Source: a bacterium (GTDB lineage Bacteria > Bacteroidota > Ignavibacteria > Kapaibacteriales > UBA2268). From it: a DNA stretch of 56,238 bases. Positions 5,923-27,135 of this stretch are shown piece by piece. The stretch lies in the NCBI GenBank assembly GCA_024710535.1, contig JANJUO010000279.1, forward strand, positions 1 through 56,238. The letters are read 5' to 3'. A program made the translations under genes and the position numbers. Numbering within the stretch: the first letter of the stretch is position 1; every line of letters starts with the position of its first letter. A model generated the notes under the pieces. That model was not told where the DNA came from, ran no database searches, and was given only the letters and a program-made list of their open reading frames with translations.

Positions 5923-5981
5923 GCTCTAACCCCATGCATTCGATGGGGTGTGAGCCTGTCATGCTTGCCACGTTTGCCGGG

Positions 5982-9782: not shown

Positions 9783-10218
9783 AGCGGCATCCTTTCGCCC
9801 ACATGACGTAGATCACAACGTCGCCGCCATCCTCTGCAGCTCCAGATAAAACCGCCTCGGGCTCAAACCCAAGGTGCTCCGCAAACGTGCGGCATTTCTC
9901 ATTGCTCGCCTCGACATACCCTGTCAGCCGAGACAGGCCGCAAACCTTGAATGCATACAGAAACGGGATGCGAACAGACTGCCTGTTGAGCCAGCGCTTG
10001 TCTTCGACGGCAGCAACATGCACCCAGGCGTTGTGACGCCCGATGTTCTCGAAGATCACCCCGGCCACCAACTCTCCGCGCCTGCGCCAGCCGATCCCGA
10101 CCATATGGTCCCGCCGCTTCACGCCAGGTACCCGCGCACGAACAAAGTCGAGCACGGGTTCAAGCTGGTACTCGATGGCCTGGGCAGTCATGGCGGCCCA
10201 TGCTGCCATGCTTGGCAC
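9766..10218 (-). CDS. GNAT-family N-acetyltransferase-like protein
   Basis: The sequence (ELVAGVIFENIGRHNAWVHVAA ... CGLSRLTGYVEASNEKCRTFAEHLGFEPE) fits the GNAT core pattern. The start is uncertain: GTG 10218 or ATG 10209. Confidence 0.6.
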   Translation of the reverse strand: MPSMAAWAAMTAQAIEYQLEPVLDFVRARVPGVKRRDHMVGIGWRRRGELVAGVIFENIGRHNAWVHVAAVEDKRWLNRQSVRIPFLYAFKVCGLSRLTGYVEASNEKCRTFAEHLGFEPEAVLSGAAEDGGDVVIYVMWAKGCRYVDSQ

Positions 10219-21688: not shown

Positions 21689-22804
21689 TCAGCGTGCAGC
21701 GCAGGCCGTATCCAGCGAGAACAGACCGAAGTCCTGGAAGCCGGCCGGCGTCTCGAAGCGCACCTTCTTCATGCCGAAGATGGAGCTGGTCGTGATCACC
21801 ACCTTGTCGCCGTTGTCACGGGTTTCCTCGTGCCAGTCGTAGCGCAGATTGGTACCGGGCGAACCGTAGGCAACAACGGCAGCCTGGGCGCCCATGAACA
21901 GTGCGCGGGCAGCTTCGACGTTGGCGCCGGATCCCGCGTTGTTGAAGCGGATCACGTTGCGGTGGCTGTGCAGGATCACGCCGCGGTACATGCCCAGCGA
22001 GCCCTTGAACAGCGGCGAGTTGCGGCCTTCGGCGCCGGCGGCAGCCTTCTGGATGTCCAGCCACTGACCGGTGTTCGTGTTCGAGCGAAGGTCGTCTTCC
22101 TGGAACGTGTGCATCACGCAGACGAACGTCTCGTTGCCGTCGATCTTGCAAGGCTGCAGCACCGGGATGTCGGTGGCACCGCCGCCCTGGCTGTCAGCGC
22201 GGGTCTTGGCGCGATCGATCAGACGCAAGTCGAACTTGTCGTTGGCGTCGATGTTGTTGAACGCGGTGGCGTCGTTGCCGTACAGCACGTGGGCCGAATC
22301 GGGGGCGGTCAGCGCGTTGTTGGCACGGCCAGCGTAGGTAGTCGGCAGCAGGAAGTTGGCGTTCACGCCACGGGCGCCCGACAGGTAGATGAACGACAGC
22401 TCATCCTGCAGGCGGGCCCACCAGCTCGACTGCTGGCGCTTGGCCTTGGCACGCAGATCGTGCAGCGTGCGCTTGCGGGTCATGCGGCCGCCAGTGTTCA
22501 CGCCGCAGCGTGCCTGGTCGATATACACCTGGTCGGTGTAGAAGCGCTGTTGCTCCTCCTTGCCTTCCAGGGTGTCCTCGCCTTCGACGGGGGCCATCTT
22601 CAGCTCGGCCAGCAGGTCGTAGCTGATCGCTTCGCCGGCATCCGACTCCAGATCGGTCAGGATCTGCAGCGGAACCTCGGCTTCGGCGCCACGCGCCATG
22701 AAGCGGCTGTTGAAGTAGGACTTCTGGCTGGCATCCAGCGCCAGCAGACCGGACCAGCGCTTGACCGCTTTGGGGTCGTTAACGCCAATGATTGTGCGAG
22801 CCAT
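21689..22804 (-). CDS. Major capsid protein, N4-gp56/epsilon15-type
   Basis: N-terminal pattern MARTIIGVNDPKAVKRWS...LTDLESDAGEAISYDLLAELK...GEDTLEGKEEQ...YIDQARCGV fits that family. SD AGGAG. Lies downstream of the scaffold gene. Confidence 0.8.
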   Translation of the reverse strand: MARTIIGVNDPKAVKRWSGLLALDASQKSYFNSRFMARGAEAEVPLQILTDLESDAGEAISYDLLAELKMAPVEGEDTLEGKEEQQRFYTDQVYIDQARCGVNTGGRMTRKRTLHDLRAKAKRQQSSWWARLQDELSFIYLSGARGVNANFLLPTTYAGRANNALTAPDSAHVLYGNDATAFNNIDANDKFDLRLIDRAKTRADSQGGGATDIPVLQPCKIDGNETFVCVMHTFQEDDLRSNTNTGQWLDIQKAAAGAEGRNSPLFKGSLGMYRGVILHSHRNVIRFNNAGSGANVEAARALFMGAQAAVVAYGSPGTNLRYDWHEETRDNGDKVVITTSSIFGMKKVRFETPAGFQDFGLFSLDTACAAR

Positions 22805-22850
22805 GTGTTACTCCTAAAGGTTTTGACCTGAAAGAGCACTCCTGCGCTCG
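22805..22850 (-). promoter_or_regulatory. Capsid-gene 5' leader with two GGA motifs (candidate CsrA-type binding sites)
   Basis: On the minus strand, GGA sits in the loop of a short hairpin GAGC-gcaGGAgt-GCTC (plus coordinates 22834-22849). A second GGA lies inside the SD AGGAG (22811-22815), 25 nt downstream. Confidence 0.4.
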
Positions 22851-22926
22851 ACAGCTTGAAATAAGCAGGCTCTATAGAACCATGCTTGTCACGAACTCTT
22901 GCATGCTCACCACGAGATTCACGCAG

Positions 22927-23130
22927 TTATGCGTGGGCCTCTGTGGCGTTTCGTGCGGGCTCTCTGTCCCGCGCCCTCTCTCGTTGAACTTTGACGGTGC
23001 GCGGCGCCACGACAACCAGGCGGGCCAGGCGGCCGGTCTTGTGTTGGATCTCGATGCGAATGCCATCGCCCAGCATGAGGCAGTCGCCGGGCTCCACATC
23101 GATCGTCAGTCGTGACGCCGCTTCGCTCAT
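22927..23130 (-). CDS. csrA: CsrA/RsmA-family RNA-binding protein homologue (67 aa)
   Basis: LTIDVEPGDCLMLGDGIRIEIQHKTGRLARLVVVAPRTVKVQRE aligns with E. coli CsrA [44 protein letters not shown] (G..LMxGD..., GxxxR, APxxVxVxRE). TGATG overlap with the scaffold gene stop. Confidence 0.7.
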   Translation of the reverse strand: MSEAASRLTIDVEPGDCLMLGDGIRIEIQHKTGRLARLVVVAPRTVKVQRERARDREPARNATEAHA

Positions 23131-24083
23131 CAGACCCCCGCGGCGTACTTCTCGCGCTGCGCCGGAGAAAGGCGCGCCAGGGCGGCCTCCAGCTCAACGC
23201 CTTCCAGGCGGTCCAGGTCGGCGAACTCGTCACCGGCAATGTCGCCAGGGCCATCGGACCCGGGCACGTGGGCCACGCTGGGGGCCACGGCGGCAACCGG
23301 CGGTGTGCGCCTGCTCACCGCGTCCTTGACCGGATCTGCGGCAGGTGCGCTGGCTGGCGGCTTTTGCGTGCTGATGCCGTGCAGGGCCAGCACTCGGCGG
23401 TGCGCTTCTTGCAGGAACCAGTCCATGGACTTGTCAGCGTTCTCGGCACGCGCGCCAAGCTGACGAACAAACCCGTCCAGGTCGTTCATCTTCTCGGTGT
23501 CGGTCCGATAGTCGATGCCGCCATGCTCCGGCTTGGCCGCCGCGGCAATCTGACGATCAATCGCGGCGTGCCACTGCTGCTCGATCGTCTGCTGATTCAT
23601 TTCCTTGGAGATCTCGGCCTTGAGCTCCAAGGTGCGCAGACCGTCTCGCTCCTGGCGGATCTGTTCCTGCTGCGCCTCGTAGTCGTCCAGCTCGATCTCG
23701 CCGGCTTTGAACTTCTCGCGCAGTTCCGCCGATCGACGTTCGACATCGGCCTTCTTGTCGGCGAAGTCTGCGGGCAGATCGGCTTTGTAGGTGACGGGCT
23801 TGCCCTGGGTAGCCGCATCATCAGCAACAGCCGGTGCGGCAGGTGCGGTAGCCGGCTGCGCTGCGGCGCCGTCCGCGGCTTGCGATGCGGGAGCGGGCGC
23901 GGCAGATCCTGCAGCGGCAGCGTCATCGCCGTCATCATCGTTGTCGTCGGCGGACGGGGCTGCACCGGAAGCGATCCGCTCCAGGGCTGCTTGTTCTTCG
24001 GCGTCGACCTCGGAAATTGCTGCTCGCTCCTCGGGGGTGAGGGTGTCGAGCATGGCCTGGTCGTTGTTGTCGGTAGCACTCAT
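23130..24083 (-). CDS. Scaffolding protein
   Basis: ATG 24083 follows AAGGAG. The protein is acidic, Ala/Asp/Glu-rich and coiled-coil, and lies between the portal and capsid genes. Confidence 0.65.
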   Translation of the reverse strand: MSATDNNDQAMLDTLTPEERAAISEVDAEEQAALERIASGAAPSADDNDDDGDDAAAAGSAAPAPASQAADGAAAQPATAPAAPAVADDAATQGKPVTYKADLPADFADKKADVERRSAELREKFKAGEIELDDYEAQQEQIRQERDGLRTLELKAEISKEMNQQTIEQQWHAAIDRQIAAAAKPEHGGIDYRTDTEKMNDLDGFVRQLGARAENADKSMDWFLQEAHRRVLALHGISTQKPPASAPAADPVKDAVSRRTPPVAAVAPSVAHVPGSDGPGDIAGDEFADLDRLEGVELEAALARLSPAQREKYAAGV

Positions 24084-24120
24084 GCGCTGATCTCCTTGCG
24101 GGGGTGGTGGGGGAAACTGC

Positions 24121-24309
24121 TCAATCCGGATCGGCCGCCACCTTGGCAACGGCCATCATCTTTTCCTTGGCCAAGGCCTGGGCCTTCGCCAGGCGCTTCG
24201 GGTCGGCCTTGATCTTCTCGGCCTCCATCAGGTACTCCAGGTCGCGCTCGACCTTCCAGCGGTCGTCGTCACTGATGGCAATTGCGTTGCCGGCTTTGCT
24301 CTTGGCCAT
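24121..24309 (-). CDS. Small hypothetical protein (62 aa)
   Basis: ATG 24309 follows GGAG. The sequence is helical and Lys/Ala-rich. Confidence 0.6.
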   Translation of the reverse strand: MAKSKAGNAIAISDDDRWKVERDLEYLMEAEKIKADPKRLAKAQALAKEKMMAVAKVAADPD

Positions 24310-24315
24310 GGTGGA

Positions 24316-26664
24316 TCACTCCTGTTTTGACGTGGCGGAATCTGCCATGCTTGGCACGTTGCGACCCTCCTGCGCCTTGGCCAGGCGTGCCTCGATGGCA
24401 GCCAGGCGCTCATTGCTGGCGGCCTGGATCTCGGCCACACGTTCGCGGCTGGCGGCATCGATGCGTGCAACCTCCAGACGCACGTCGGCGTCCTTGTTGA
24501 GCTTGAGGGTATCGTTGGCCAGTTGGCTTTGCGCCTTGGCAAGATCGGCGCTCAGACGCTCGATCTCGGCAGACGTGGCGGCCATGGTCTGCATGTCCAT
24601 GCCCTGGGGACTGCCGGCTGCAGCGGCGTCGGCCTCCAGCTTGGCGGCCCGTGCGTTGATCTCTCGCACCTTGGCCTTTTGTTCCTCCAGGGCGGTCATC
24701 GCCTGTTCGCGCTGCATTTGCAGGGCTTCGGCCTGCATGGCGGCCTGCTGATCTAGCTGTTCCTGCTCCTCGGGTGTCACGGGCTTGTTCGGGTCGCGTT
24801 CGCCGGTCAGCTTGCGGAACTGTTCGGCAATCTCGTCCTTGTTGGGAAGATCCGAGAACTCGAAGGCCATGGTCATCAGCTTCAGCGCCACATCAGGCGG
24901 CAGTCGGCCGGCGATGTTGTTGAGGCTGTCGAACATCACCTGGCGCAAGGTGCCGGCGTAGTCCTGCTCCGACACAATGAAGTCGGCCATGCTGGCCGTG
25001 ATGTCGTTGAGGAACCTCACCGATCCATCGGCCGCGGCCTCTGGCTGGTTGACCTTGACCCACTCCAGCGCGCCCTTGTGACCAACCAGGCGGATCACCT
25101 TTGGGGTCGTGTAGAACTGCTCGGTCAGGGAGACTTGCTTTTGCCCCTGAACCTGGGTGGCCAGGCGCAGATTGTCGAAAGGCTCCGTCGTGACGACGCT
25201 ACCCTGAATCTGGCGGGCCTTGATGGCTTCGCCGCTGACCGCGTTGGTCTGGCGCCCCAGGTTCTCGTCGGCCACGCCGGCTGACTTCTGGATGGACTGC
25301 GCATCCAGGCTCATCATCGAGATCTGGCCTGTTGCGCCGTCTGTGTCGCGCCGAATCAGGAACTCGCGGCCGGGCTTCTTGATGATCACCCCATCGGGAC
25401 GGTCGGCCTCATCGCGGGCCACATCCCAATCCTCGACGGCGCCCTCGTCGGCAATGATCTGGTTGGAGTTGAGCAAGAACAGCGCCTTGGATGCGCGCTT
25501 GTTCAGATCCTGCTGCACGTCCCGCACGCGGCGGATTGCGCCATAGGGCAAGCGATCGCGGCCCCGGCGGTAGCACCACACAGGTGTCAGGCTGAAGTCG
25601 TTGTGCCGATAGATGCTCGGCCCGAAGTGCAGCATGTCCGTCTCGGTGAAGACGGCAATGTGCATGCGCATCATGAGCTTGTCGACCAGCTTGGAGCCGC
25701 TGGCCACCACGTTCTGCACCATCACCTGGTCGCGCTCGTCGAAAACCAGGCCTTGCATCGGCCCTGAGTCCACCACCTTGACGTTGGTCGGGATGCGGTA
25801 CTGAGCCTCGATCAGCCGGACCTTACGGCGCTTGGCGTCGACCATCATCCCGGATCCGTGGGCGTAGATCACGCCAGATCGGTTTTGCCCACCGAAGGGG
25901 TCGATGGAGTCGTACCAAGATTCCTCCTCGAACGCGCCGCCGGTGCGCTGGGACGCCTCCTCGACGGCCGCGCGGATGCGGTTGGCCCGATCCGGGAACA
26001 TCATCACGGCGATGTCTTCATCCACCCAGCGCCAGCGGAACAGGTAGCGGCAGTCGCTCAGATCGGGCTCGTAGGCGTCGCTGTCCCAAAGGACATTGCG
26101 CCAGTCCTGGTACATCGAGTACAGCACGTCCTTGGTCGGGTCATCCCGCGCGCCGTCATCGAGCCAGCCCACACCGCCCTTGATGGCATCGGCAAAGGCC
26201 CGGGACCGGGCAAACACCGTTCGGTTGATGTCGCTGACGTACTTCAGCACCTTGGTTTTGATGTCCGCGAGATCGACGTCATCCTCGGTGCGCGGCAACA
26301 CCTTCCAATCGACGCGCGTGCGGCGCTCGGTACCGATGAGCCAGTCGCACATCGGGGCGACTTCGTTGTAGACCAGAGGCATCTGGCCGCGGTCGCGGAC
26401 CGCCTGGGCATCCTCGGGATCCCACTGGAGGTTGTCGTAGAAGTCGTGATCGATGGACATTTCCAGGCGGTTGGCGGCCTGCTTGTCCTTCTCGTAGTAG
26501 AACCACTCCAGCAGGCGGCGCAGTTCGTTTCGCGCCTCCTGCCCGTCCATGGGGTGCGCGCTGACCGTCGCCAACTCATTGCGGCGGGTGTCATCGGCGT
26601 GCGAGTCGAAATACTGGTCGCCGGGCGCACGGCCCCGCTTGACCGTGACATCCAGCTCATTCAT
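24316..26664 (-). CDS. Portal protein (782 aa)
   Basis: The call rests on size, position between TerL and scaffold, and SD AAGGAAGG. The coiled-coil C-terminus is typical of podophage portals. Confidence 0.75.
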   Translation of the reverse strand: MNELDVTVKRGRAPGDQYFDSHADDTRRNELATVSAHPMDGQEARNELRRLLEWFYYEKDKQAANRLEMSIDHDFYDNLQWDPEDAQAVRDRGQMPLVYNEVAPMCDWLIGTERRTRVDWKVLPRTEDDVDLADIKTKVLKYVSDINRTVFARSRAFADAIKGGVGWLDDGARDDPTKDVLYSMYQDWRNVLWDSDAYEPDLSDCRYLFRWRWVDEDIAVMMFPDRANRIRAAVEEASQRTGGAFEEESWYDSIDPFGGQNRSGVIYAHGSGMMVDAKRRKVRLIEAQYRIPTNVKVVDSGPMQGLVFDERDQVMVQNVVASGSKLVDKLMMRMHIAVFTETDMLHFGPSIYRHNDFSLTPVWCYRRGRDRLPYGAIRRVRDVQQDLNKRASKALFLLNSNQIIADEGAVEDWDVARDEADRPDGVIIKKPGREFLIRRDTDGATGQISMMSLDAQSIQKSAGVADENLGRQTNAVSGEAIKARQIQGSVVTTEPFDNLRLATQVQGQKQVSLTEQFYTTPKVIRLVGHKGALEWVKVNQPEAAADGSVRFLNDITASMADFIVSEQDYAGTLRQVMFDSLNNIAGRLPPDVALKLMTMAFEFSDLPNKDEIAEQFRKLTGERDPNKPVTPEEQEQLDQQAAMQAEALQMQREQAMTALEEQKAKVREINARAAKLEADAAAAGSPQGMDMQTMAATSAEIERLSADLAKAQSQLANDTLKLNKDADVRLEVARIDAASRERVAEIQAASNERLAAIEARLAKAQEGRNVPSMADSATSKQE

Positions 26665-27073: not shown

Positions 27074-27135
27074 AGTGCCCGGAAGTTGCCATGCTCAGTA
27101 CGAGTTTGTTTTCGATCACTGACGGTTGTTGTCAT

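Follow-up and report, generated by a model that had tools for sequence, protein, structure and literature searches.

Canonical CsrA requires both Gs of the GGA triplet in its RNA sites, as established in the RsmE and CsrA literature, and it can activate translation by opening structures that sequester the Shine-Dalgarno (SD) sequence, as in ymdA and moaA. Small phage proteins, like the coat protein acting on the MS2 and Qbeta operators or RegA of T4, are known to repress a gene at a hairpin or site at its start codon. Homologues of CsrA have been annotated in phages since 2011; in 2025 what they do in the life cycle was still called untested (PMC11879866), and 30 csrA-positive phages have been listed by Sobrero and Valverde (PMC7366521). 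One such gene, already annotated in Bcep22-like phages, is designated a "CsrA-like regulator" in most records of this kind (Bcep22, BcepIL02 gp49, BcepMigl gp35, JC1 gp47, GP4 gp04, PEp14_0009, ZX1, Itty13 and Skulduggery). It directly follows a scaffold-like gene in Erwinia PEp14, Klebsiella ZX1 and Pseudomonas Itty13, has one small open reading frame (ORF) before and/or after it in BcepMigl and GP4, and is annotated as well in the records of Klebsiella LASTA and Pseudomonas Skulduggery. The subject of the present work is the version of this gene carried by a 56,238-nucleotide contig (JANJUO010000279.1 of assembly GCA_024710535.1; hereafter "the window", meaning the whole of this stretch), where it lies between a scaffold-like gene and the leader of the major capsid gene.

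The window represents a Bcep22-like temperate phage genome, and profile matches together with a predicted fold identify the product of the gene, 67 amino acids (aa) long, as a divergent member of the CsrA family. Conserved as a regulatory RNA and carrying a small hairpin, referred to below as the box, the capsid leader is the most plausible target of the CsrA-like protein. A second copy of the box, overlooked in a preliminary description of this locus, occurs at the scaffold start codon, and the two copies flanking the CsrA-like gene suggest a phage-owned switch for head-protein synthesis. A literature search found no paper on the box or the closed fold of the leader, nor on the hairpin at the scaffold start.

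Box hairpins at the capsid leader and the scaffold start

The box in the capsid leader of the window (HP2; coordinates of this and other features are in Table 1) is best drawn as six base pairs, one of them G.U, closing an AGGA tetraloop (-9.1 kcal/mol, z -2.5). Its loop GGA lies at 22842 and a second GGA, within the SD, at 22814; the 122-nucleotide (nt) leader and the 25-nt separation given in the preliminary description agree with the coordinates. The number of GGA triplets is not in itself evidence, because the composition of the minus strand predicts 2.0 per 122 nt and two are observed, and with up to two mismatches allowed the 12-mer core is no commoner in the window than expected (13 found, 15.8 expected). 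It is across relatives that the element stands out. The sequence GCGCAGGA(N)GUGC recurs about 45 nt before the capsid ATG, amid flanks that differ freely, in 67 non-identical viral contigs whose capsid proteins are 76-96% identical and whose CsrA-like proteins are about 30-60% identical. In a set of 56 non-identical relatives the box hardly varies, in contrast to its flanks. Altogether it is known in more than 100 relatives, with capsid proteins down to about 43% identical, and its distance to the SD is roughly constant in relatives; a viral-contig scan detected at least 594 relatives. A covariance model of the box scores 32.3 bits for the capsid copy in the window, against 13.6 bits for the second match, and over about 75 loci it finds one box per locus, invariably in the capsid leader. 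Rfam, in turn, has no family reaching threshold in the leader or anywhere else in the window.

Other named phages carry the box with different loops, GGA in BcepMigl and GP4, UGA in PEp14, POI1126 and PBC5, and AGA in Itty13 and ZX1, and the stem of GP4 shows a compensatory change (ACGC/GUGU). Forty-four prophages, with capsid identity down to about 46%, have the box as well, and AGCA and AGUA occur as further loop variants. Over the whole family, 88 leaders have GGA as the loop triplet, 18 have UGA, 11 AGA, and three GCA or GUA; the first G of the GGA, varying as it does between lineages, is hence not a conserved feature, and the conserved unit is RCGC-A-N-N-A-(N)-GYGY. A viral-contig scan for the UGA variant returned mostly random matches, with eight of 120 located at a capsid leader, and was discarded.

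The second hairpin of this type (GCGC-AUGA-GUGC), with one mismatch relative to the capsid box, is predicted to hold the scaffold start codon in its loop. The choice of this ATG (24083) is supported by the SD AAGGAG that precedes it and by the conserved N-terminus, MSA or MST, of the relatives. Its exact 12-mer, which is the very sequence of the capsid-leader box in UGA lineages, is found at the scaffold start in 17 unique relatives, and 16 further ones have a single C.A mismatch (GUAC or GCAC, with a Thr codon instead of Ala). The stem is compensated in six relatives (GAGC/GUUC) and in one more (ACGC/GUGU), while nine others have ACGC-AGGA-GUGU or CCGC-AGGA-GUGG positioned over the scaffold SD. 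In the whole window, the capsid-leader and scaffold-start copies are the only box-type hairpins at ribosome-binding sites (RBSs). That one type of hairpin recurs at two initiation regions where its pairing partners differ is hard to fit to cis pairing alone and points to a shared reader acting in trans.

The leaders of the distant prophages L271, L280 and L290 contain two box-type hairpins in tandem (for example, GGGUCGC-AGGA-GUGACCC followed by GGCGC-AAGA-GCGCC), an arrangement that would suit a dimeric binder. The leader of the window has a further hairpin, GGUUC-UAUA-GAGCC (22868-22881, minus strand), followed by a U-rich run and terminator-like, with a variable hairpin at this position in most relatives; another, CACGCA-UAAC-UGCGUG (22920-22935, minus strand), spans the stop codon of the CsrA-like gene.

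The CsrA-like protein and its occurrence with the box

The 67-aa product matches the Pfam CsrA family (PF02599) with 29.4 bits, the cut-off being 27, as well as PHROG 8397 ("CsrA-like regulator"), while a word-based protein search returned the query itself as the sole match. The preliminary description had the ORF aligning with CsrA/RsmA along its length. Membership of the family is borne out by Pfam and by fold, but only residues 9-55, comprising the beta-core, align, and the final 12 residues fall outside. An alignment of 53 homologues, two of them from isolated phages and the others from viral contigs with a related capsid gene, shows K31 and G33 without variation and D11, G15, S32, R37 and A42 almost without. 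Individually, 38 of the 53 match Pfam CsrA, and their joint profile matches RsmE, CsrA and RsmA among the chains of the Protein Data Bank (PDB), best of all RsmE (2JPP; E 1.2e-8). An AlphaFold2 model of the monomer, built on 51 homologues, has a predicted local distance difference test score (pLDDT) of 83.9, and its Foldseek ranks 1-15 against the PDB are exclusively CsrA, RsmA or RsmE, at probability 1.00 except for rank 15 (0.95) and with root-mean-square deviations mostly of 1.1-1.5 A over about 45 residues. The predicted fold is thus CsrA-like, a point on which the preliminary identification depended.

Residues I10 and R49 of the window protein are equivalent to L4 and R44 of E. coli CsrA, with K or R at the R44 position in relatives. 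The equivalents of R6 and R7 are V12 and E13, neither of them basic, and most relatives have R at the R7 position. No C-terminal alpha-helix after strand 5 is assigned by DSSP on the model, where the tail has a pLDDT of 58-67; tails vary among relatives and often run through a nucleotide motif described below (motif 1). The ORF of the window ends before its copy of that motif, which lies there in another frame. As the preliminary description had stated, the gene is joined to the scaffold gene by a TGATG junction, in which base 23130 is common to the scaffold stop codon TGA and the ATG of the CsrA-like gene.

The prophages nearest to the window phage reside in Burkholderiales (Hydrogenophaga, Rubrivivax, Giesbergeria, Roseateles, Limnohabitans and Quisquiliibacterium), and its host is probably a Burkholderiales bacterium. 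In five host genomes with the nearest prophages, the matches to PF02599 are prophage genes exclusively, and Rfam gave no match to a sponge RNA of the CsrB/RsmY/RsmZ type in the window. A CsrA-FliW pair in the metagenomic bin of the window was rejected as a clue to the host, being on a 30-35% GC contig of another organism. These findings undercut the notion, raised in the preliminary description, that the phage protein hijacks the host Csr/Rsm regulon in lysogeny or late infection. Such a role has been proposed for CsrA homologues of mobile elements (PMC7366521; plasmid RsmQ, PMC9928087), and the paper on phage JC1 treats the gene as a moron, an extra phage-carried gene, whose role is unknown (PMC9144972). 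For the lineage studied here we consider hijacking very improbable, since the five host genomes searched encode no CsrA beyond the prophage copy; moreover, csrA is reported absent from Burkholderia hosts (PMC7366521), and the gene is not moron-like, being within the late head operon, coupled to the scaffold gene, and conserved in position in more than 100 phages.

Gene and box are found together wherever capsid identity is at least about 43%, and both are missing in 25 distant prophages and two isolated phages. In a very young clade, whose members have capsid identities of at least 99%, the gene has been lost in L045, L056, L216 and L055 and is degenerate in L047, whereas L044, a 96% relative of this clade, retains gene and AGGA loop alike. 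The four leaders without the gene have either a deleted loop or a longer local hairpin, and the predicted probability that the SD is unpaired rises to 0.42-0.95; in L047 the loop is lost and this probability is only 0.31. A separate loss of the gene, in L278, comes with a degenerate box and an open RBS (0.75). Over the family, the median probability is 0.17 with gene and box versus 0.42 in the distant relatives without either (Mann-Whitney p = 2e-7, uncorrected for phylogeny and GC content).

The predicted closed leader, a candidate circuit and its alternatives

Folding with RNAfold places the strand of the box in a long helix in 63 of 64 leaders, with a mean probability of 0.15 for an unpaired SD, so that the small hairpin becomes an alternative and mutually exclusive conformer. 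In this closed form, the partners of GGA(N)GUGCUCY are the SD and spacer, and those of the upstream CA and GC are the UG of the AUG and codon 2; in the window, the helix reaches the SD, the spacer, the AUG and capsid codons 2-3. The first G of the loop is predicted to pair with the spacer before the AUG, and loop and partner match in different lineages, as GGA-UCC in BcepMigl, UGA-UCA-UG at the start codon in POI1126, PBC5, L134 and L191, and AGA-UCU in ZX1. Of the alignment cells, 81.6% are paired, compared with 77.3% upon shuffling (reached in 0 of 500) and 29-43% with slid partners. Duplexes of box and RBS average -14.1 kcal/mol when cognate versus -11.6 kcal/mol when non-cognate (permutation p < 1e-4, uncorrected for phylogeny). 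An outer helix, of CGAGC with codons 2-3, was tried at a fixed register and set aside (23 of 61 paired, 19 expected, p = 0.12). Forcing the small hairpin in the window leader frees the AUG (probability unpaired 0.89) at a cost of 8 kcal/mol. The leader is thereby, in prediction, of the SD-sequestering switch type, with SD and AUG paired by default and an exclusive upstream hairpin.

How the protein would act on such a leader is the point at which we depart from the preliminary description, in which a dimer would span the two GGAs, of hairpin and SD, and could repress or delay translation of the capsid gene. The AGGA loop and the SD GGA, 25 nt apart, lend themselves to this reading, as does the near-constant distance between box and SD in the relatives. 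The spacing is within the published range for dual sites, and the loop with its closing pair, CAGGA(N)G, resembles the CsrB repeat. However, the loop GGA is missing in many lineages, its first G changing to U or A, or the triplet to GCA or GUA, and a geometry based on two GGAs is not what is conserved. Nor is a repressor needed to limit capsid translation, since in 63 of 64 leaders the predicted fold itself sequesters the SD. An opened leader in the clade that has lost the gene is unexpected for a pure brake, and the capsid protein is the most abundant late product. We therefore regard a bridging repressor as improbable and, from the predicted folds, opening by the protein at the capsid leader as more likely than repression.

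In the circuit that we propose, a putative dimeric CsrA-like protein would bind both the scaffold-start and the capsid-leader hairpins. Binding at the scaffold start would block initiation and, the CsrA-like gene being translationally coupled to the scaffold gene, would also feed back on synthesis of the CsrA-like protein. At the capsid leader, trapping of the hairpin would remove the anti-RBS strand from the SD and AUG and so open capsid translation; this sign, activation, is suggested by the closed default fold and the rewired leaders of the CsrA-less clade, and by these only. As a net result, the phage would itself control when, or in what ratio, scaffold and capsid protein are made, independently of host Csr. 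We give even chances to a dimer that reads both hairpins in this manner, blocking the scaffold start, limiting its own synthesis and favoring the open capsid leader, as modeled here. Tentative, and on balance doubtful, is the fuller proposal of a private two-site circuit in a Csr-less host, with scaffold and regulator turned off and capsid turned on via the open conformer, that sets the timing or stoichiometry of head assembly. A private circuit would give a reason for the retention of the gene in hosts without CsrA. If true, it would represent a virus-owned post-transcriptional switch for capsid assembly, and a CsrA-family protein with relaxed or retuned specificity, for A-N-N-A loops, that would be relevant to CsrA target prediction in general.

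Several observations weigh against this circuit. The co-occurrence of gene and box is largely one phylogenetic split, and L292 keeps the box without any CsrA-like ORF. Only relatives close to the window, with capsid identity of at least about 71%, have the scaffold-start box; BcepMigl, GP4, PEp14, Itty13 and ZX1 lack it. The first G of the loop GGA varies between lineages. Part of the invariance of the box is explained without any protein, in that its CA pairs with the UG of the AUG and its GUGCUC with the SD, and G.U wobble allows the RBS side to drift while the box side stays fixed. The inner four pairs of the stem never vary, so that the small hairpin has no support from covariation; covariation as proof of it was rejected, the shuffle controls not being exceeded. 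Furthermore, no residue of the protein was found to track the loop base, the core of L252 (AGA) being the same as that of L031 and L260 (GGA). Covariation of protein and loop was also sought at the L4-equivalent position, occupied by aromatics or H in some non-GGA phages (W, W, F, H, F) and by V, L, L or I in others, and was discarded.

The main alternative is that the RNA features are purely cis-acting, with the CsrA-like protein acting otherwise, for instance on host mRNAs or in association with the virion. Candidate cis roles are mRNA stability, processing of the RNase III type, presentation of the start codon, and opening by ribosomes that terminate upstream. Consistent with them are the lineage-specific pairing between loop and spacer (GGA-UCC, UGA-UCA(UG), AGA-UCU), the pairing of much of the box with the invariant SD and AUG, the lack of covariation between protein and loop, the box of L292, and the stop codon of the CsrA-like gene, which in most relatives is 59-98 nt before the capsid ATG and near the foot of the helix. 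A single peptide of the CsrA-like protein has been detected in JC1 virions (PMC9144972). Yet an identical 12-mer occurs at the initiation regions of two genes where the pairing partners differ, and the GCGC/GUGC stem is kept where capsid codon 2 is not GCN, so pairing with codon 2 is no explanation for it. In the window, the upstream stop codon is 122 nt away, too far for opening by ribosomes, and loss of the gene coincides with a rewired leader. We rate a purely cis-acting role as rather unlikely, though as an alternative of real weight.

The head operon, motif 1 and relation to known systems

The head module has the order portal, small ORF, scaffold, CsrA-like and capsid genes, all on the minus strand (Table 1). 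The window, a complete 56-kb contig, has 63% GC and is the longest contig in a metagenomic bin of 34% GC, a disparity from which we conclude that a phage contig was mis-binned and that the bin is unusable for inferring the host. Its capsid protein is about 49% identical to those of cultured Bcep22-like and related isolates, and a sigma-70 promoter scan of the region gave no match.

Table 1. Coordinates of features of the head region and of motif 1 in the window.
Feature	Position	Strand	Basis or remark
Box hairpin HP2, GAGCGC-AGGA-GUGCUC	22834-22849, core GCGCAGGAGUGC 22836-22847	minus	Covariance model, conservation
Second box hairpin, GCGC-AUGA-GUGC, GCGCAUGAGUGC	24076-24087	minus	Covariance model, second-best in window
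Predicted closed conformer, long helix	22793-22853	minus	Minimum free energy -23.7 kcal/mol, z -3.1
Hairpin HP3, AGGU-CAAA-ACCU, between box and SD	22818-22829	minus	Compensatory changes at all four pairs
Capsid SD, AGGAG, with second GGA	22811-22815	minus	
Capsid leader, 122 nt	22805-22926	minus	
CsrA-like gene, 67 aa	22927-23130	minus	Pfam, PHROG, fold
Major capsid gene	21689-22804, ATG at 22804	minus	PF13252 7.9e-63; PHROG 334
Scaffold-like gene (PHROG 8246)	ORF 23130-24149, probable start ATG 24083	minus	PHROG match 8e-52; portal-capsid position
62-aa ORF	24121-24309	minus	
Portal gene	24316-26664	minus	
Motif 1 copies	24343-24357, 10204-10218, 5957-5971, 27087-27101, 22878-22892	minus	Late-gene junctions
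Degenerate motif 1 copy GUGACAAGCAUGGUU in capsid leader	22878-22892	minus	Link to CsrA-like protein doubtful

In relatives, the interval that separates the CsrA-like gene from the capsid leader is a hot spot where extra genes have inserted, among them a basic ORF of 226-245 aa (L010, L026, L030, L079), an HNH-type ORF (L038), a 2.3-kb insert (L047), and two small ORFs resembling a toxin-antitoxin pair (L055). In every case of insertion, motif 1 and the box remain with the capsid gene and not with the CsrA-like gene. The capsid start codon of L010/L011, L034, L036, L054 and L079 is apparently TTG, or even ATC, at the position of the ATG of others.

Motif 1 is a 15-nt sequence, GTG[C/G]CAAG[C/G]ATG[G/A]CA, confined to the coding strand, with 15 matches in the window versus 5.8 expected. 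In most relatives it occurs about 95 nt before the capsid ATG and at the 3' end of the portal gene, which in the window holds the copy at 24343-24357. Because the motif is inside the ORF, the portal protein and many CsrA-like proteins (L013-L086) end in "VPSMA" or "VARMT". Its central bases (GCA, GGA, GTA or GCG) change in concert among the copies of one genome, a pattern to be expected if a phage-encoded factor recognizes the site. As a second site for the CsrA-like protein, motif 1 (GUGCCAAG[C/G]AUGGCA) was rejected, its stem being without compensation and the motif persisting in the CsrA-less clade; it more probably serves another factor, as a late promoter or processing signal.

Among known systems, the closest in genetic context are the Bcep22-like phages of Burkholderia and the GP4-like phages of Ralstonia, in which the gene likewise follows a scaffold-like gene upstream of the capsid gene, the window phage differing from these isolates in being uncultured. 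What is added for this head-operon lineage of CsrA-like genes is two candidate RNA targets and a sign for each effect. The E. coli phage PTXU04 also encodes a CsrA homologue, gp28, whose knock-down by CRISPRi-ART gave smaller plaques in what was billed as the first functional test of such a gene (PMC11879866) and is the sole one that the literature search found. However, gp28 is nearer in sequence to canonical CsrA and, rather than belonging to a head operon, comes last in a leftward lysis operon, behind the holin; it says nothing on capsid leaders and, given this different context, was rejected as direct experimental support.

With CsrA, RsmA and RsmE themselves, the window protein shares its sequence family and beta-core fold, a candidate target consisting of an AGGA-loop hairpin near the SD, and possible autoregulation, here via the upstream coupled gene. 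It differs from them in having no predicted C-terminal helix and non-basic equivalents of R6 and R7, in the dispensable first G of the loop, and in having two candidate sites per genome, both at phage genes; the window phage is also without a sponge RNA or a FliW partner, and the hosts are without CsrA. The logic proposed for the scaffold-start hairpin is that of the MS2/Qbeta operator and T4 RegA, although the protein families are unrelated and those systems have no activating second site. Lastly, RsmQ of plasmid pQBR103 is a CsrA-family regulator carried, as here, by a mobile element (PMC9928087), but it acts on the Rsm regulon of a host that has Rsm proteins, whereas the candidate targets of the phage protein are the mRNAs of the element itself.

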